Positions 1-25,102 of a stretch of DNA of 25,102 bases are shown piece after piece. Every line of letters starts with the position of its first letter. Position 1 is the first letter of the stretch. The translations under genes were made by a program, and so were the position numbers. Source of the stretch: a virus (lineage: Duplodnaviria > Caudoviricetes); IMG/VR virus record IMGVR_UViG_3300009409_000040, positions 1-25,102 of that record; one strand, given 5' to 3'. Under the pieces are notes generated by a model. It worked only from the letters and a program-made list of their open reading frames with translations. It was not told where the DNA came from and did no database searches.

Positions 1-1430
1 GCAGTAGGAGCAGTAACGCCGTTGAGGGTAGTGACAGTAGCAGCGGCGGGAGTACCCCCACCTAGTACGCCGTCCAGCGTTCCAGTGAAGCCGGTAGCAA
101 CAGCCTCTTGCCCAACTAGCCCGGCGAGGACATTCGTTGCGTCGGTTACGTCAGCAGATGCCTCGATGCCATCTAGTTTTGTTTCCTCTGCGCTGGTGTA
201 TTGCGCTGTTGGCGAAGTGACGCCGTTGATTGCGTCTGTCCAAGTCCCAGCCCAACGGACGCCGGTCGTTCCGAGGCTATCGGTGCTGTCGGCATCCGAG
301 ACGACGTTGCCGCCATGCGTCGTAACGCCAGCAATCGTGATGTTGGCGGGGAGGCCGACAGTGATTGTCTGTCCGCTTGCTGCGGTCTCGATCTCATTGG
401 CTGTGCCAGCGACGGTAAACGTCTGGCTGTCTAGATCAACTGCGCCAGTGCCAGTACCGCCAGCAAAATCCAGATCAGAAGCCGTGACCTGCGCGTCCAC
501 GTAAGTCTTAATTGATTTGGCCGACGCAATCGTGTCGTCGCTGCCGCTGACCGAAGACAGGTCGGTATCTACTAGGCCGCTGGCAAATTTCGGGTATGTC
601 ACGGAGCCGTCAGCCGGGGTCTCAATGGCCCTCTGGCTCATGTGCATGACTTCCACATTGCCAGTGCCAGCCGGTGGCGCAGCCGAGAACGTCAGCGTTG
701 TCCCTGATAGCGAGTAGGTGTTTTTCTGTTGGTAGACGCCGGAGATGTGGACATCGGTGTTGTTCTCGTCGCCGTTGGCCGGGGCAACCGAGAGCGTGAA
801 GGCAGTCTGGCTTCCCGTGCCATTGAACAGGTCAACAGTCTGAGTCCCTGCATACGCTGCAGCTTCCGCAGCAGACGCAGCAGCAGCATCACGGTCATCT
901 GGCGCGTTAGTCCCTGCAATCCAAGATACTCCCGCAAGATCTGAATCCATATTAAGGTAGTATCCAGCTACAGGTACAGGAGTATCACCATCAAACCCAA
1001 CTGCTGAAACAGATGGTATTAGGATAGCCCTGTCCAGTTGTTCTTGCATCTGTAGAAGTAGAATAGTGCTCTTGTCTAAAGCTGTTTCTAACGTCTCAGG
1101 TAGGTAAGCTCCTTGATTTGTTAAGTCAGTTGTCTGGGTGATAGGTAACACCCGTTTAATAGTGAGAGTCTCAGTAAGAGGCATTGCAGTACCTAAAATT
1201 GAGGCTGGATATGTTATAGAGCCAGTGGCTGGGAAGACAGTGAAGTCTACACTGTAGTTACTTGTGCCAACACCTTCAGTTAATACAGTTGTCACGTCAG
1301 TAGCTGTAACTGTATGTAACACTTCTATATCTGTTGATGCATAGATTACCATTGGACTAAATGAGAAAGTTCTTGAGCTAGAATTCCCCACTAGTGCAGA
1401 AGTAATGCTAGTTGTGTCTGTTACTGTCAT
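1..1430 (-). CDS. tail fibre/tailspike protein, N-terminal part (runs off the left edge; absent from the ORF track)
   Basis: ATG at 1430 overlaps the TGA of the 1974-aa ORF (ATGA). My translation is open to the window edge: MTVTDTTSITSALVGNSSSRTFSFSPM...TLTIKRVLPITQTTDLTNQGAYLPETLETALDKSTILLLQMQEQLDR. This resembles a T7 gp17-type podovirus anchor domain and is followed by Gly/Thr/Ala-rich beta segments (FNGTGSQTAFTL...GVYQQKNTYSLSGTTLTFSAAP). Confidence 0.85.
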   Translation of the reverse strand, partial: MTVTDTTSITSALVGNSSSRTFSFSPMVIYASTDIEVLHTVTATDVTTVLTEGVGTSNYSVDFTVFPATGSITYPASILGTAMPLTETLTIKRVLPITQTTDLTNQGAYLPETLETALDKSTILLLQMQEQLDRAILIPSVSAVGFDGDTPVPVAGYYLNMDSDLAGVSWIAGTNAPDDRDAAAASAAEAAAYAGTQTVDLFNGTGSQTAFTLSVAPANGDENNTDVHISGVYQQKNTYSLSGTTLTFSAAPPAGTGNVEVMHMSQRAIETPADGSVTYPKFASGLVDTDLSSVSGSDDTIASAKSIKTYVDAQVTASDLDFAGGTGTGAVDLDSQTFTVAGTANEIETAASGQTITVGLPANITIAGVTTHGGNVVSDADSTDSLGTTGVRWAGTWTDAINGVTSPTAQYTSAEETKLDGIEASADVTDATNVLAGLVGQEAVATGFTGTLDGVLGGGTPAAATVTTLNGVTAPT

Positions 1431-4400
1431 TCGTCTTCTCCAATCCCTCTTTGTTCTATGATCCAAGGAGAATACCCTAGCAGTAAGGCTAACCCTGTCT
1501 TAGTATCACCTTTAATTAACCTATCAAACCCTTTAACTTCATTCATAAACTGCTCTATAGGCACACCTGATACCATTCCCGCCAACTCCCCGCCATATTC
1601 AAGTGCCTTAACACCATCTATAAAGTCTTCCCATTCGATTGATGACCAATCTTCTTTTGCCATTTCTTTAGCAAATAAAGCTGCTGTTTTCATAAGTTGT
1701 AGAGGGTGTCTACCTTCCAGATCAAATCCTGTTTCCGGGTCATCTCTATAGGCTGTAGATAGTGCAGCGTTAGCTAATACTAAAGCATCTCCTAATAGGA
1801 ATAGACCATTCCAACTACCTAGGATGCTAGCTTGTAACATATCTTCTTTATCATAATCAAAACCATTAGCAATAAAGCTAATCAAATTAGGGATGAAGAA
1901 GTGATATACAAAGAATCTCTTCATAAATTCTTTCTTAGTTATTCTGCCTTTACCCATCTCAGTAATGGCCCTAAGCTCTCCTCTAGCTATAGCATTAGCA
2001 CCACTCATAAACTGAACTAACAATCTACCATAAGAACTACTGCGCTGTAGCTCACTTACTTTATCAGGATCTGTACTCTGTTGTGTATCATTTGATAGTT
2101 GTTCAAACTTCAAGATAGCATCTGGAGTCGACATACCCTGCTTCTCTAATGCTCTGATATGAGCATAACCACCAAAAGCAATAGCTCCAGCATCACCTAG
2201 CGTGATAGCTTTCATTACTACTTTAGTAAATGTAGGGTTCCTCCCCATAAAATTAAATATCTTATGACCTTGTTTGCTCTCAACTAGCTGCTGAAAATCA
2301 TGATCCAGCTTAATACCTCTATTCTTAAAGAAGGTGCTATTCTCGTTTAAAAACTTAATAGCTTTCTTGGGATTTGCCAGAAACTCTGTCAATCCTTTTA
2401 AGAAGTCAGTCATCTTTACATTCTCACTGAAGGCTGAGAAAGATGCTAACTGCTTAAGACCAATCTGTGGCTTAAGCCCCAGCTGTGCAAAGCTGAAGTT
2501 ACGCATCAACCCTACTAGTACATCTTCACCAGTCTGACTAACCATCACTCCTTTGTTAGCGAAGTACTCTATGTCTCTACGAATAGTATCATGCACAGGC
2601 TGGCTAGAAGTCTCCAAGATTCTTCTCATCACCTCGCTATTATTACCTGAGAACACTTTATTAATAAACTTGACCTTCTCAGCATACGCTATGAAATACT
2701 CCATCTCCATAAGATGTGTTTGCATCACTTCGAAGTCAGCTCTAACCTTAAGTCTTGAGTTGTTTTTAGTTCGTTGTTTCAAAGCTGATGGATTTATTAA
2801 GCCACGATAGAGAGCCCCCTTAAGGAACTCATCTTGACTGCCATCTTCACTAAGCCTACTGATAGGCACATACTGATCAACTTTAGGAAGGGTGACACCA
2901 TACATACGTTGGTACACTTTGTTGATACGTTCATAGAACTCATTGTAAAATTCTTGTTGTGCTCTGATCATCTGCCAGTCCAGCTTATCCATTTGTGCCT
3001 TCATAGCATCATGGATTTGGGTAGTATATCCTTCATTCTGTGAGTCCATCGCCATAGCTCTGATGTCATCATTCTCCAACTCCATCACACGCTGTCGTAG
3101 TTGTGACTTAGTGAAGGGTTTACCATTAGCTCCTAGTACTTCTTTAATTTGACCATTGCTTATGATATTGCCATCCGCATCTACCGTATCAGCAAACGTG
3201 AATGACTGACCTAATGGCACAGATTCAGTAAAATCTTTTTGCTGTTGTTTTAGTATCTGCTGTTCACTAAGTCCAGTGTTCTTCATAAGTATTTCAGTGA
3301 TACGTTGTACACTCCTACGTCTATTCTCTTCTGCTACTCTTGCTTCTCTGGTTAGAGATAGGACTGATTGTATCTCTTCAGCTAAGTTAGCATCACTTGT
3401 CGACATGATATCACCTAGCTTGTTCTTCCATACTCCACTAGGTCCTAACCACCATTTACCTTTCTTTTCTGACCAAGAAACTGCTAGTGTAGATCTAGCT
3501 TTAGTAGGCTCTTCCCCTATAGCCTTAATGAGATTAACTCGTGTACTCTCTTGCTGTATCTCTTCCTTGAATAGAACAGACTTACTCCTCTCTACACCTT
3601 GGTCAACAATATCACTAAGCCCTAACAATACACCTTCAACAAAGTCAGCGTTAGCTGTTGTAGGATTAGCTTTTAGAGTGAGAAGTGCATTGATGAGCCG
3701 TGCTTCTTCATCAAGCATGTCTGCGCTATCTAATGATTTAGCATCTGTATTAAGAACTAAAGAGAGACCGTCCCCATCCTTACCGCTTAACCTCTGTTCA
3801 AGGAGTAGGGAGGCATCGGCCTTCTTCATATTGAAGTGTTTGCTTAAGACAGTTATCAAATCAGTTGTCTTAGTATCTCTGAAGCCTGCCTTACCACGTA
3901 GAGCGTTAGTCGTACTATCAACTTTAGCTTTGTAACGTCCCAGTGTCTGCTTGATAGAAGAGATTATGTCAGCCTTACGCTGTCTATCCAACGCTTCCAT
4001 AACTTTAACTTGAATGTCTGGTAGTTTCTTAGCTAGTACAGCACTGTCTGTAATCGTATCAATCTGCTTTAAGAACCTAGCTTGGTTCGGAGCATTCAGG
4101 CCACTCTTTGTAATGAGATTGCGTAGTGTCTTCTGAGACAGCTGTATATCTTTCTTAACTAAACTCTTAGCTTCAGTGAAAGCCTTGCGTGTTTCTCTCA
4201 TACGAGTACGTTCAATAGCTACGCCTAGATCCAAGAGTCTACCAGCTTTCATCTTGATAGAGTCGCTACGCTGCGCCTTAAGTTTAGGTACTTTAGGTAA
4301 GGCCACTCTCTTCCCACCCTGACTAAGTAACCCTTCACCTTTCAACAAGGCATCTGGATCTGTGATACGGTTTCCGTTACCATTCCTAAGGAAAATCTGT

Positions 4401-7351
4401 ACAGGTAAAGACTTAAGCCCTGCCTTCTTAGCAGCCATAGCCCTGTGTCTACCTTCATGCCCTACTACTTTCCATTGATTCTTGGTGATATTCCACTGTA
4501 GTGTGAGGAACGGTGGAGCAATAGGTTTGCCGTCTCTGATAGCCTCCTCTAAGAACTCTACTGACTCTCCCTTAACCTGCTCAGGTGCTATAGCTTCCGC
4601 CAGTTCTAGAAACTCATCAGGAGATAGGTCCCTAGTAGGTGTCTCTTCTCTGTTAGCCCCTTCAATCTGATTAGGAGTTATGCCTATAGCACCTTTCACT
4701 ATCTTGAAGACAGACCTAGACTTCGTCACTTCATCAGGCTGGATAGCTTCATCGTTCTCAGGGCGTAGACCTGCCCTTCTATCAGGCAGCTGAGCTGCAG
4801 ATATCTGTGCCTCAATATCACCTTGCTGCTCTATAGCCTTAGCTAGTTTATTCTCTATTGCTTTGGTAGGTTTACCTGCTTCCGTAGCTTCATCAATCTT
4901 TTCATGTAGTCTAGCTATCTCTTTATCTTTGAGAACCAAATCTTCATCAAGGACAACAGCCCTAGCTTCTTCTAGCAGTATGGATACACCGAGGTCATCT
5001 TGCTGAATCTTATCAAGCATTACATCCAGTTCAGCCATGATACCACTACGGCTAGCTCCTAACAGAATCTCTTCTAAATCAACAGACTCTCCCTTCTTGA
5101 AAGCAGCAAGCCACTTACTAACTCTAGCAGCCAGCACAGGCTCAATAGTCTTAGCCTTAATCCTAGCTTCAAGCATCTCCTCAAGCTTCTTCTTGTTCTC
5201 TAGTATCTCATCTTCAACCCTCTGAGAAGAAGGGAACCCTGCTTCAAACTCAATGTGTGTAGCAATAGACGAGTAGTTCTTATGCCCCATGAGGATGTTG
5301 GCTAAGTCATGCCCACTGATCCTAGCATTAGCCCCTTGCATAATGCCAGCCATCTGCTCAGTTAGTTTAAGCTCATGCACCATGGCTGCAAAGCCCTCTT
5401 CAGTCTGCCCCATCCATTCGAGCAGCTTCTGACTAGGCACCTCCACCCACTCATAACCTTTCTTCTTAACAATCTCTACTCTGAGTTCAGCTGCTAAGTC
5501 TGGGTCTTCCTGAACTATCCCACTCTCTTCCATAGCAGTTACGACAGCATCCATAGCCCTCTTGTGTTTGACAGGCCTACCTCTTCCAGGTAGCAAGGCA
5601 CCAATGGTACCACCTATAACTGCCCCTATAAACCCTGCCTCTCCTATCTCACCTATGTCTATCTTATGGTCAGGGCTAATCAACCCCATACCTATTAGGT
5701 CATGCCCTATGTTCTCTACAATCTCCTGTGCCCCTTCGACACCAGCACTTGACAACATACGAAGGAATCTATTACGTACATTAGCAGGTATGAACTTGAA
5801 TATCTTATCAAGACCATACCGCTCTGTGGCTGCTGTCAACACTCCACCCATAACACCAGCAAACTGGAAGTCATCAGGGTCGAGACCATGCTCCTTAGCT
5901 ATGTCATCAACAGAGTCTTTACCCTGCTGGAACATAGTTGTATACGAGAGAGCTGGGTTAGCTAACCATAAGGCGACTTGGGCTCCCACTTGACCAAACT
6001 GACCTATAGTCTTCTGGAATAGATCAAGGTCATTGGTAGGGAAGAGATCATCAGCTGCCTCATCTAGTATGTCACCGGGTCTGCCCAGCACCTCAGTGGG
6101 TTTAAGCCACCACGGTACGTACCCACGGTAGTCGTCCTGCATCTCCTTAGCTACTTCAACAAAGTCTCCAAACCCTAGCTGGGTTAAGACTAGGTTCATA
6201 GGTGCACGGATACCTTTGTCTATAATATTGAATAAGGTCTTACCACTACGAAGTCCTGCTCCAGCTGTCTTTACTACATGACCTTGCAGCAGTCTACCGA
6301 TATCAAGGAAGTACTCATCATTATCATTCAAGGTGGCTGCTGTCTCAGCTGCTATAACCTGAGGTGCAGCCTTCGCCACCTTCTTCATCTTCTCAGGGTC
6401 TGTACCAATTGTGTTCAAGGTCTCAGGAGACAGTGACTCTGCCTGTCTCCTTCTCCAATCCCTAGCCCACTCATCAGGATCTAGTGTTTTCATTTGAGCC
6501 ATCTGGAACTCATCAGGCTGCTTCTGCATACTCTCTGCAATAGCAGTCCCATCAGTCAGACTAGTAGCGTACGGGGTGTTGTCAGCCAGCTGTCTCAACA
6601 CTCCAGCATGGTCAGGTAGAGTAGCTAGTGCTTCATCCTCATTGAGAAGTATGTCTACTTCACCAATACGTCTACCAGAAAATGCCAGCTGTGGCTCTAT
6701 CTCTGTACCATCCTCAGGTGCAACAAGAAGATTGTCTAGGAGTTTGCCATTCTTATCTTTCCTACCATTAGGATCTTTGATGTAGGAATAGTCAAGAAGC
6801 TCGTTCTGGATAGCTGCCCTATCTCTGTTCTTATAAGCCTCCACCATCTTAGGACCAAGCTTACCAAAGTGATTGGTAATAGAGGCAGCTACTGTTTGCT
6901 CACCAGCAGAGTATGACTCAAAGTCTTGCCCCACTTCCTCCCTAAACTGCTTCTGCAATCTACCATAGGTGAAGGACTGAGTAACCTTATTGATGTTCGC
7001 ATTCTCTTCATTTGTCAGGAAGATGCCATTAGCTGCCTTCTGCGCTGCATCCCCTTTTAAACCGTAGGCACCAGCAAAGGTGAGTTTGTCAAGGATGCTG
7101 TCTTGCACACCCATCTTCTTCATACTAGCCCTAGTCTCTTTACCTGCATCTAGCCCATGGTCACCTAAGGTAACACCAGAACTAGGGAAGTCTTTACCAG
7201 GGTGGTACGCTCTGATATACTCAGTGTTGTCTTCTTCAAGCGTGACCCTAGGAGCAGTGCCCTCAAACTCACTGATCTTAAAGAAGTCTATCTGGTGATC
7301 TTTCTTCTTCCTCTTCTTATCAGTAGAGGTAGGGACAGAAAGTAAAGACAT
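1427..7351 (-). CDS. large internal virion/DNA ejection protein (gp16-like position) with N-terminal pesticin-type muramidase domain and internal ParB/Srx-like domain
   Basis: 1974-aa ORF, last of three ejection genes before the fibre. N-terminal IDFFKISEFEG...AYHP...SGVTLGDHGLDAG...GLKGDAA...QTVAASI...RRIGEVDIL matches the pesticin C-terminal muramidase pattern. Internal VVGHEGRHRAMAAKKAGLKSLPV is a ParB-type motif. Confidence 0.8.
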   Translation of the reverse strand: MSLLSVPTSTDKKRKKKDHQIDFFKISEFEGTAPRVTLEEDNTEYIRAYHPGKDFPSSGVTLGDHGLDAGKETRASMKKMGVQDSILDKLTFAGAYGLKGDAAQKAANGIFLTNEENANINKVTQSFTYGRLQKQFREEVGQDFESYSAGEQTVAASITNHFGKLGPKMVEAYKNRDRAAIQNELLDYSYIKDPNGRKDKNGKLLDNLLVAPEDGTEIEPQLAFSGRRIGEVDILLNEDEALATLPDHAGVLRQLADNTPYATSLTDGTAIAESMQKQPDEFQMAQMKTLDPDEWARDWRRRQAESLSPETLNTIGTDPEKMKKVAKAAPQVIAAETAATLNDNDEYFLDIGRLLQGHVVKTAGAGLRSGKTLFNIIDKGIRAPMNLVLTQLGFGDFVEVAKEMQDDYRGYVPWWLKPTEVLGRPGDILDEAADDLFPTNDLDLFQKTIGQFGQVGAQVALWLANPALSYTTMFQQGKDSVDDIAKEHGLDPDDFQFAGVMGGVLTAATERYGLDKIFKFIPANVRNRFLRMLSSAGVEGAQEIVENIGHDLIGMGLISPDHKIDIGEIGEAGFIGAVIGGTIGALLPGRGRPVKHKRAMDAVVTAMEESGIVQEDPDLAAELRVEIVKKKGYEWVEVPSQKLLEWMGQTEEGFAAMVHELKLTEQMAGIMQGANARISGHDLANILMGHKNYSSIATHIEFEAGFPSSQRVEDEILENKKKLEEMLEARIKAKTIEPVLAARVSKWLAAFKKGESVDLEEILLGASRSGIMAELDVMLDKIQQDDLGVSILLEEARAVVLDEDLVLKDKEIARLHEKIDEATEAGKPTKAIENKLAKAIEQQGDIEAQISAAQLPDRRAGLRPENDEAIQPDEVTKSRSVFKIVKGAIGITPNQIEGANREETPTRDLSPDEFLELAEAIAPEQVKGESVEFLEEAIRDGKPIAPPFLTLQWNITKNQWKVVGHEGRHRAMAAKKAGLKSLPVQIFLRNGNGNRITDPDALLKGEGLLSQGGKRVALPKVPKLKAQRSDSIKMKAGRLLDLGVAIERTRMRETRKAFTEAKSLVKKDIQLSQKTLRNLITKSGLNAPNQARFLKQIDTITDSAVLAKKLPDIQVKVMEALDRQRKADIISSIKQTLGRYKAKVDSTTNALRGKAGFRDTKTTDLITVLSKHFNMKKADASLLLEQRLSGKDGDGLSLVLNTDAKSLDSADMLDEEARLINALLTLKANPTTANADFVEGVLLGLSDIVDQGVERSKSVLFKEEIQQESTRVNLIKAIGEEPTKARSTLAVSWSEKKGKWWLGPSGVWKNKLGDIMSTSDANLAEEIQSVLSLTREARVAEENRRRSVQRITEILMKNTGLSEQQILKQQQKDFTESVPLGQSFTFADTVDADGNIISNGQIKEVLGANGKPFTKSQLRQRVMELENDDIRAMAMDSQNEGYTTQIHDAMKAQMDKLDWQMIRAQQEFYNEFYERINKVYQRMYGVTLPKVDQYVPISRLSEDGSQDEFLKGALYRGLINPSALKQRTKNNSRLKVRADFEVMQTHLMEMEYFIAYAEKVKFINKVFSGNNSEVMRRILETSSQPVHDTIRRDIEYFANKGVMVSQTGEDVLVGLMRNFSFAQLGLKPQIGLKQLASFSAFSENVKMTDFLKGLTEFLANPKKAIKFLNENSTFFKNRGIKLDHDFQQLVESKQGHKIFNFMGRNPTFTKVVMKAITLGDAGAIAFGGYAHIRALEKQGMSTPDAILKFEQLSNDTQQSTDPDKVSELQRSSSYGRLLVQFMSGANAIARGELRAITEMGKGRITKKEFMKRFFVYHFFIPNLISFIANGFDYDKEDMLQASILGSWNGLFLLGDALVLANAALSTAYRDDPETGFDLEGRHPLQLMKTAALFAKEMAKEDWSSIEWEDFIDGVKALEYGGELAGMVSGVPIEQFMNEVKGFDRLIKGDTKTGLALLLGYSPWIIEQRGIGEDE

Positions 7352-23987: not shown

Positions 23988-24144
23988 TTTCCTAAACTTC
24001 CTTTTTTTTTCTAAATTCTTTTTCATTTAGCTGGACAATTGTCTAGTATATAAAAACACACCCTATACTATGTATATCGGTTTTTTCAGGTTTTTACGAC
24101 ATTTTTTCTTCATTTATTTTCATTTATTTTTGACAATCGTTATA

Positions 24145-24157
24145 TATCAATAACTTA
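24145..24157 (+). promoter_or_regulatory. IHF-consensus binding site within an AT-rich tract
   Basis: TATCAATAACTTA is an exact WATCAANNNNTTR match, preceded by T-tracts (CATTTATTTT x2 at 24111-24130). Confidence 0.45.
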
Positions 24158-24410
24158 CATTTTATTTTTATTTTCAATTATAAACTTTTTTTTATTTTTA
24201 CTAGACATTCCTAAATAATACTTAGGGGTCTAAGCATTATTTGATTACGCTTTTCATTCGCTAGTGAAATACGTGTCAGTTTTTTGGAAATTGAAAGGTG
24301 TGGTCTGGGAGGTGCCAAGGCTCTCCTAGGGGGTGGTACGAAATCAAATGAGGGGCACCGCCCCCCGAACATCGACATCTCTCTAGTCACTCTCTCGATG
24401 CAAGCGGGTA

Positions 24411-24495
24411 CAACTGTCTAGACAACTGCCCCTCCCACTGCCCCTCCAACTGTCTAGACAACTGCCCCTCCAACTGTCTAGACAAACTGCCTCCC
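24411..24495. repeat. tandem 24-bp repeats containing the palindrome TGTCTAGACA
   Basis: CAACTGTCTAGACAACTGCCCCTC at 24411 and 24447, a variant at 24471, and a half unit CCACTGCCCCTC at 24435. Confidence 0.9.
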
Positions 24496-24613
24496 AAGAT
24501 TGTGGATGGAAGTGCGGGGAGTGTGAAGGGGTTGTGCTACCAGCAACTGTCTAAGTGCCCGCATGCGCTCACATCCACTCACAAACTTTTTTGCAAGTTT
24601 CTCAATTAATCGC

Positions 24614-24642
24614 TTGACGGTTGGCAACCGTGCACTTAAGTT
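24614..24642 (+). promoter_or_regulatory. sigma70-like rightward promoter with overlapping operator-like inverted repeat
   Basis: TTGACG-17 bp-TAAGTT with an AT-rich upstream element. ACGGTTG-G-CAACCGT (24617-24631) overlaps the -35 box and spacer. Confidence 0.65.
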
Positions 24643-24795
24643 CAATTCACCAGCCCGGAGACAACCGGGAGGCCCGGTCCACAGGACAGCAGCGCCACAC
24701 AAATCTCCGCCCCGGTTAGTAAGCCGAAAGCTGAGACGCCGGGGCGGGTCACGGAGCCTCAATGAGGTGCGATCCCGGTCCTGCCTAGCAGGGGA

Positions 24796-24847
24796 ATAGT
24801 CGCGGTTGATACTGGCCGCCTGACGAGATCAAGGGGATCGAAACTAT
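24796..24847 (+). ncRNA. type III hammerhead self-cleaving ribozyme
   Basis: ATAGTC / stem I GCGGTT-GATACT-GGCCGC / core CTGACGA / stem II GATC-AAGGG-GATC / GAAA / CTAT pairing with ATAG (stem III). Predicted cleavage is after GUC at 24801. Confidence 0.88.
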
Positions 24848-24932
24848 GACCACCGACACACTGACAGTGAAACAGGGCCGATCCTACTAAACCACGATCA
24901 ACCCAACCCAACCCAACAAGGATACCAAGAAC

Positions 24933-25102
24933 ATGACATTAAAATTCAAAATGACTCGCAACGTAGACGGCGGCACGGCAGTTGTTAAAGCCGATTATAA
25001 GATCGTTCGGTTCTATCGTAACGACAAGCCGTGCCGGACAATTAAAGCCGGATTGACGCTGAAAGAAGCGCAAGCGCATTGCAGCGACGCGGCAACGTCC
25101 AC
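24933..25102 (+). CDS. small early-type phage protein (runs off the right edge)
   Basis: My translation is MTLKFKMTRNVDGGTAVVKADYKIVRFYRNDKPCRTIKAGLTLKEAQAHCSDAATS..., open to the edge with AAGGA upstream. I recall YKIVRF...GLTL.EAQAHC from small phage proteins of unknown function. Confidence 0.65.
   Translation, partial: MTLKFKMTRNVDGGTAVVKADYKIVRFYRNDKPCRTIKAGLTLKEAQAHCSDAATS

Follow-up and report, generated by a model that had tools for sequence, protein, structure and literature searches.

Analysis of a 25,102-nucleotide stretch of tailed-phage DNA (the window) revealed a type III hammerhead ribozyme whose 3' half likely also provides, as judged from its sequence and that of two relatives, a ribosome-binding site and a start codon for the first gene behind it. 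We hold that the RNA is very probably a real hammerhead. We further propose, with somewhat better than even confidence, that the ribozyme trims a structured leader from the transcript while its 3' half serves a dual use, and that the effect on translation is modest. The first-pass annotation had correctly read the element as a leader hammerhead, but it missed the start site in the 3' half and a type I hammerhead 1.7 kb further on.

The hammerhead and its phage

All parts of the hammerhead core (CUGANGA, GAAA and UH) are there in the correct order, and three stems surround it, with loops closing stems I and II and the ends of the RNA meeting in stem III (Table 1). A descriptor of the core and three stems matched once in the window, both strands included, and in none of 1500 dinucleotide shuffles, which upholds the earlier claim of a complete type III hammerhead with each element in its assigned place. 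Stem I can be read equally well as 5 bp with an 8-nt loop. When 24785-24860 (i.e., the ribozyme with short flanks) was folded, the MFE and centroid structures were both the three-way junction, with a z of -0.07 against shuffles. In an alignment of ten examples, covariation was seen in two of the five stem III pairs; stem I, which is misaligned there, was left out of the count. The covariance-model check proposed for the element gave a divided result: RF00008 aligned over its full model to 24794-24849 (29.7 bits, E 4.9e-4), but this score lies under the gathering score of 48.5, and the whole window had no Rfam match at gathering scores. Clear hammerhead folds in two other contigs, L136 and L205, also scored below RF00008 gathering (45.0, 44.6 and 41.5).

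Table 1 Features of the ribozyme, its leader and its surroundings (window positions)
Feature	Position	Strand	Remarks
Sigma-70-like promoter	24614..24642	+	-35 TTGACG 24614-24619, 17-nt spacer, -10 TAAGTT 24637-24642
Structured leader, predicted 5' cleavage product	24649..24801	+	About 153 nt; no Rfam family
Leader hairpin 1	24655..24668	+	From fold; kept in L092 minus one outer pair
Leader hairpin 2	24671..24696	+	Inner stem 24677-24687
Leader hairpin 3	24707..24747	+	Long GC stem, 5x5 internal loop, -26.6 kcal/mol
Leader hairpin 4	24756..24768	+	Loop changes only in L091
Stretch complementary to 24834-24840	24770..24776	+	Would break stem II and hide the Shine-Dalgarno-like run
Leader hairpin 5	24780..24792	+	From fold
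Type III hammerhead ribozyme	24796..24847	+	Predicted cut after C24801
Stem III 5' strand	24796-24800	+	Pairs with 24843-24847
GUC triplet	24799-24801	+	From sequence
Stem I	24802-24807/24814-24819	+	Four Watson-Crick pairs, then two U.G
CUGACGA	24820-24826	+	N7 = 24824
Stem II	24827-24830/24836-24839	+	5-nt loop
Shine-Dalgarno-like run	24831..24838	+	Loop II and 3' strand of stem II, 7 nt before ATG
GAAA	24840-24843	+	Core
Stem III 3' strand	24843-24847	+	Stem III is 5 bp, AU-rich
ATG and ORF	24846..24890	+	14 codons in the window; 68-codon gene in L091/L092
Next small gene	24933..25102	+	Own ribosome-binding site; 67 aa in L090

According to the available text of PMC6155905, fast cleavage features a contact between loops I and II, made by a reverse Hoogsteen U.A pair or a pseudoknot. 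Loop I begins with U and is similar to that of the hammerhead in contig L129. The 3' A of loop II is missing in the window and in the relative L092, and in the relative L091 an A is penultimate. With no A at the end of loop II in the window, it is uncertain whether the usual contact between the loops can form; inspection by eye revealed no Watson-Crick pseudoknot of at least three pairs between the loops.

The window makes up an entire assembly. Its minus strand encodes podophage morphogenesis genes, including a capsid protein 56-58% identical to the capsid proteins of BcepC6B and BPP-1, and near-identical DNA is present in marine, seawater and brine metagenome runs. Leftward genes lie left of 24026, and the hammerhead stands at the start of the rightward arm, which we infer to be the early region, with a typical gene make-up. 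Contig L090, which may share the window's source, is identical to the window over 1221 bases; beyond this it encodes a primase/helicase and some ten small proteins without known function. Contigs of runs X4, X9 and X12 span the ribozyme stretch without one changed letter, and together with the L090 identity this shows that the stretch is no assembly artefact. The small gene at 24933..25102 matched no PHROG family. The 56-aa downstream ORF recurred at one distant locus, in whose upstream 1.5 kb no hammerhead was noticed on reading. A blastn search of 24000-25102 against cultured phages gave a single 28-base match (E 0.3). Among small-terminase relatives (80 of 224 loci kept), the closest two, L001 and L002, have less than 650 bases of upstream DNA, which ends before the ribozyme position.

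A second hammerhead, of type I, lies 1728 nt downstream of the type III one (L090 2197-2252, minus strand). It is also found in L091 (317-369, minus strand), and the genes behind it begin alike in both contigs. Rfam misses this type I hammerhead, and a search of L090-L092 at E 1 gave no match. Clustered hammerheads flank phage and prophage genes, for which processing of polycistronic RNA has been proposed, and the hammerhead of haloviruses HF1/HF2 precedes the first gene of an early transcript by 13 nt (PMC3088659, Perreault et al. 2011). That hammerheads occur in phage regions of small genes, as the first-pass annotation had stated, is thus documented, and the type I copy fits the clustering. 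The hammerheads of that survey resemble ours in their canonical core, their position among small phage genes and the presence of several ribozymes per early region.

A metagenome scan with the leader pattern returned four loci: L090 (the same phage), L091 and L092 (relatives that keep the cassette) and L089, a chance match. The ribozymes of the two relatives differ from that of the window at four sites only (24815, 24824 (i.e., N7), 24832 and 24834). Two loop II bases are altered in L091, a stem I U.G becomes U-A in L092, and the invariant core bases are unchanged in both. Four runs, each covering the ribozyme wholly or in part, show no variant letters. Furthermore, a comparison of L091 with L092 gives 16 differences over 182 cassette columns, as against 36 over 207 for the gene that follows. 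With only three sequences, this conservation is compatible with selection and falls short of strong proof by covariation. Exact hammerhead and hairpin-3 patterns had no matches in viral contigs.

Promoter, leader and start site

The ribozyme had been placed about 150 nt behind a promoter-like site, and we found the corresponding hexamers. In the window this promoter is weak (8 of 12 consensus letters) and was rejected by the rule of our promoter scan; in L092, the promoter at the same place has 10 of 12. Transcription would start near 24649. Contigs of runs X15 and X20 match 24582-24653 piecewise and diverge at 24646-24653. The promoter segment 24582-24653 is a reusable module, in that these contigs differ from about the inferred start site onward.

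The leader is 92% identical to the window in L092 and, over 132 nt, 98% identical in L091. Apart from the loss of one outer pair of hairpin 1, the changes fall in loops and linkers or are one wobble and compensatory pairs. In hairpin 3, L091 replaces G-C by G.U, and all other changes lie in the terminal loop (L092 and run X13) or the internal loop (X13). Hairpin 5 is invariant in L091 and L092 and so offers no covariation. The leader hairpins accept nearly only loop, wobble or compensatory changes, and this substantiates the structured upstream RNA of the earlier reading; folded alone, the leader has a z of -1.49. We take the internal loop of hairpin 3 (24716-24737) to resemble a bacterial loop E sub-motif, and run X13 alters only the outer part of this loop. 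A search of 24649-24795 against Rfam gave no credible match up to E 10, and three boxA-like patterns did not match the leader. Readings of the leader as an SRP-like, twister, pistol or tRNA-like RNA were without Rfam support and were rejected.

The start codon at 24846-24848 consists of the last two stem III bases and the next G, and the Shine-Dalgarno-like run ahead of it pairs with a generic anti-Shine-Dalgarno core at -6.2 kcal/mol. In L091, where loop II is altered, this pairing is still -5.9. The 68-codon ORFs of L091 and L092 differ by 22 synonymous and 7 nonsynonymous codon changes, and by 8 and 1, respectively, ahead of the next in-frame ATG. There is no in-frame start codon upstream of the stem III ATG in either relative, and Met stands at this position in 17 of 21 homologous proteins (P0008 being the L092 protein). 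The codon changes indicate that the 68-codon gene, read from the stem III ATG, is under purifying selection.

Similarity between the window and its relatives ends directly after the ATG. The first 16 bases of the window's 14-codon ORF resemble the start of another L091 gene, and the ORF is therefore probably a stump. Of the 16 letters of the ribozyme 3' half that lead up to the ATG, 14 are shared with an ordinary gene start in L092, a likeness suggesting that the fusion of ribozyme and gene start could have arisen by recombination.

Embedded starts among other hammerheads

A scan of viral contigs that required the ATG returned 76 loci, comprising seven true folds, one doubtful fold (L154) and 68 chance matches. 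Three of the seven passed our strict filter (L120, L136 and L151; L120 and L136 are near-identical). The other four (L106, L129, L152 and L160) were missed by it because of extra bases before stem II and were recognized by eye. A scan of genomes gave five loci, of which four were chance matches and one (L298) was a true fold with a 5-codon ORF. With L120 left out, the ATG-selected folds number ten (the window, L091, L092, L106, L129, L136, L151, L152, L160 and L298). An ORF of at least 30 codons follows in eight (the short ones being those of the window and L298), and the loop II/stem II run reaches -5.9 kcal/mol or better in seven. Loop II contains GGAGG in L106, L129, L136/L120 and L152. Four different ORFs follow in L106, L129, L136 and L152, each of 51-78 codons and ending at or a few bases from the next start; leader pieces common to these loci make them approximately one clan. 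L151 and L160 are ambiguous, as each has an in-frame downstream ATG with its own Shine-Dalgarno sequence. In addition, L289 has one ATG flush with stem III, and L205 has two.

Several of these loci have features of their own. L205 carries tandem type III hammerheads (687-742 and 996-1051, minus strand) with an ATG one base after each, and the first is preceded by a leader with a hairpin-2-like motif. In L106 (minus strand, about 1881 in reverse coordinates), the type III hammerhead has A9 separated from stem II by an extra 4-bp hairpin; its relative L152 has a single additional U there. The L298 hammerhead (1501-1552, plus strand) is in a Saccharimonadales genome bin and is followed by the 5-codon ORF and a promoter-like site. 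L151 contains, 2 kb past its type III hammerhead, a match to the Rfam Proteo-phage-1 RNA (4505-4587, plus strand; 38.9 bits, gathering 42).

A control scan blind to the ATG, using one stem II pattern, found at least 125 loci, and an estimated 1400 or so stretches fit this pattern; phage hammerheads are thus common already. Among the matches listed, 131 were distinct (72 type I, 33 type III, 24 unclassified and 2 without stem II). We scored 36 type III folds, i.e., the type III hammerheads among the matches listed and others of type III in their flanks. A gene start lies within 60 nt in 31 of these 36, and the ATG is inside stem III in none and one base behind it in three. Among the other 33 controls, again from the matches listed, the loop II run is -5.9 or better in 8 and -9 or better in 3, compared with 7 and 5, respectively, of the 11 long-ORF cases whose start is embedded or flush, which stem from few lineages and are not independent. 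Strong Shine-Dalgarno-like loops also occur without a usable ATG or long ORF beside them (type III hammerheads of L212, L262 and L274). As a rule, the ribozyme precedes an ordinary ribosome site by 6-47 nt, and the embedded start is a minority variant.

The Shine-Dalgarno-like run and ATG inside the ribozyme set the window apart from the phage hammerheads of PMC3088659, where the passages on start codons, ribosomes and translation describe no such arrangement. Nor did we find, in literature searches and in passages of PMC3088659, PMC5737381, PMC13725137, PMC10353319, PMC6155905, PMC3664830 and PMC6765202, a natural hammerhead with the Shine-Dalgarno sequence in loop II and the AUG in stem III. 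We can offer only tentatively the broader idea that some type III hammerheads of phages form a natural class, built round the start of the first early gene in this way, in which cleavage and leader release switch the gene on, possibly under control of the leader.

Cleavage, leader release and translation

In the mechanism we favor, host RNA polymerase would start near the predicted site, and after about 200 nt the ribozyme, given its intact core, would fold and cut. The 153-nt leader, then held by the five AU-rich pairs of stem III only (-1.6 kcal/mol), would drop off, leaving an mRNA with a 5'-OH and the stem I hairpin at its front. The 5'-OH end of the downstream product, as claimed previously, follows from hammerhead chemistry if the cut occurs (PMC6155905, available text), and such an end resists decay in E. 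coli (PMC3664830, available text). The ribosome would load on the remains of the ribozyme, with the Shine-Dalgarno-like run in loop II/stem II and the ATG freed from stem III. By geometry, an intact ribozyme and a bound 30S subunit could not coexist, because the footprint would cover stem II, the GAAA core and stem III. First genes would be swapped at the stem III ATG, the slot of the window holding the 14-codon stump only. The cut would probably influence translation modestly, and not act as an on/off switch.

A stricter version, in which the uncut ribozyme fully blocks the first gene and the cut turns it on, strikes us as unlikely. The Shine-Dalgarno-like run, core and ATG are all within the fold, and stem III (6-9 bp) spans the whole ATG in L106, L129, L136 and L152; in the window clan, only two ATG bases are paired. 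We computed the energy of opening the region from -16 to +13 before and after the cut. With long leaders, the cut lowers this energy by 2.3-3.3 kcal/mol in L091 and L092, while the window start becomes less open (9.4 vs 7.5-8.6 kcal/mol). Across 12 embedded or flush cases, the gain does not exceed that of 28 ordinary controls (medians 0.45 vs 0.45 and 1.2 vs 0.6; p 0.64 and 0.38, respectively), and once cut, the embedded or flush class still has the less open starts (9.15 vs 5.15). In these models, then, the site is not clearly opened by cleavage in the manner of an engineered switch. Nearest-neighbour models ignore the tertiary stability of the ribozyme and hence understate the block by the uncut form; with tertiary energy and the order of folding left out, they can decide neither for nor against gating. 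Finally, two homologues (P0012 and P0014) carry extensions that read, at the protein level, like ordinary ribosome-binding sites, so that the gene seems to work without the ribozyme.

We think it quite unlikely that the leader is the main product (i.e., a 153-nt phage small RNA with a task of its own, for example as antitermination element or decoy) and that the overlap with the gene is a matter of compaction, although this reading is compatible with leader trimming and a dual-use 3' half. The leader's 92-98% conservation with structure-compatible changes would suit such a product. The order of promoter, 100-210 nt leader and type III hammerhead recurs in L129 and L151, and a hairpin-2-like motif is found again in L205, 135 nt ahead of a type III hammerhead. 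Against this, hairpin 2 provides the one independent covariation event (two compensatory pair changes in L092, with the same allele in run X13), and the leaders of other lineages are unlike. A leader motif scan of viral loci found at least 119 loci, and the L205 contig alone had a hammerhead behind the motif; the pattern was partly built from that contig, so this match is not independent. A leader profile search does not recover L205. The hairpin-4 pattern gave seven matches in viral contigs, all by chance.

It is very doubtful that the leader regulates the ribozyme, with 24770-24776 pairing to 24834-24840 so that ribozyme and ribosome site alike stay shut until freed by a ligand, a protein or the timing of transcription. 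Full-leader folds do favor this competing helix, which the first-pass annotation overlooked, over the ribozyme by 1.5-4.9 kcal/mol (2.9-5.6 in a separate calculation), and its pair probability is 0.88-0.99 in the window, L091 and L092. However, the penalty (4.0 kcal/mol in the window, 4.9 in L092 and 1.5 in L091) is within the range of 34 control type III hammerheads (median 2.7; at least 4.0 in 8 of 34). One pair of the helix is broken in L091 without compensation, and because stem II is palindromic, any upstream GAUC competes with it. That the ribozyme is slow or idle in the window genome, a leftover before a truncated gene, is highly improbable: the 14-codon ORF, the loop II without its 3' A and the competing folds would fit, but the core is perfect, the four runs show no variant letters, and the L092 copy, one base apart, precedes an intact gene.

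Leader trimming with a dual-use 3' half has a partial counterpart in engineered hammerhead translation switches, in which the ribosome-binding site is placed in an extended stem I (PMC3664830, available text). In both, the ribosome site lies in the ribozyme, the cut removes the pairing strand and the 5'-OH product is stabler. The engineered switches rely on a long designed anti-Shine-Dalgarno helix, whereas the window has a natural type III ribozyme with the ATG in a short stem III and the Shine-Dalgarno-like run in loop II/stem II, for which folding models predict little gain from the cut. Hammerheads of eukaryotic RNA viruses likewise lie near the start codon, in one case at a distance of 7 nt, and have a link to initiation; unlike ours, they are of type I and lack a Shine-Dalgarno sequence, and the paper describing them, in its available text, set DNA bacteriophage matches aside. 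Reviews state that the role of bacterial and phage self-cleaving ribozymes is open (PMC6765202 and PMC6155905, available text). A catalytic core that overlaps a selected start site offers a direct test of that role. If the cut raises translation, phage hammerheads would be expression switches besides scissors; if it leaves translation unchanged, a hammerhead and a ribosome site sharing 25 bases would form a compact natural insulator. The leader would be an unnamed conserved RNA with predictable ends.

The early transcript of phage T7 is processed by RNase III. That system too has an early transcript made by host polymerase, a trimmed leader and cuts between small genes. Here the proposed cut would be RNA-catalysed, leaving a 5'-OH and requiring no host enzyme, and the phage head is BPP-1/BcepC6B-like, unlike that of T7. 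A repeated intergenic hairpin is found in L090 (about 3594-3640, minus strand), in two copies in L091 and in one in L092, always just before a ribosome-binding site; its outer arms are fixed, and its inner stem varies yet still pairs. Its pattern matched four times in 2.7 Mb searched, all within the L090-L092 clan. We presume, by analogy with T7, that this hairpin may be an RNase III-type processing site.

Between the divergent arms of the window lie repeats of a palindromic 10-mer and of C-rich units (24411-24553, 24036-24046 and 24196-24207), possibly a genome-end, packaging or replication region. At the other end of the window, a comparison of 1-1000 with 1000-2500 shows a drop in GC content from 56-60% in the tail-fibre-like gene to about 38%, which suggests a swapped tail module.
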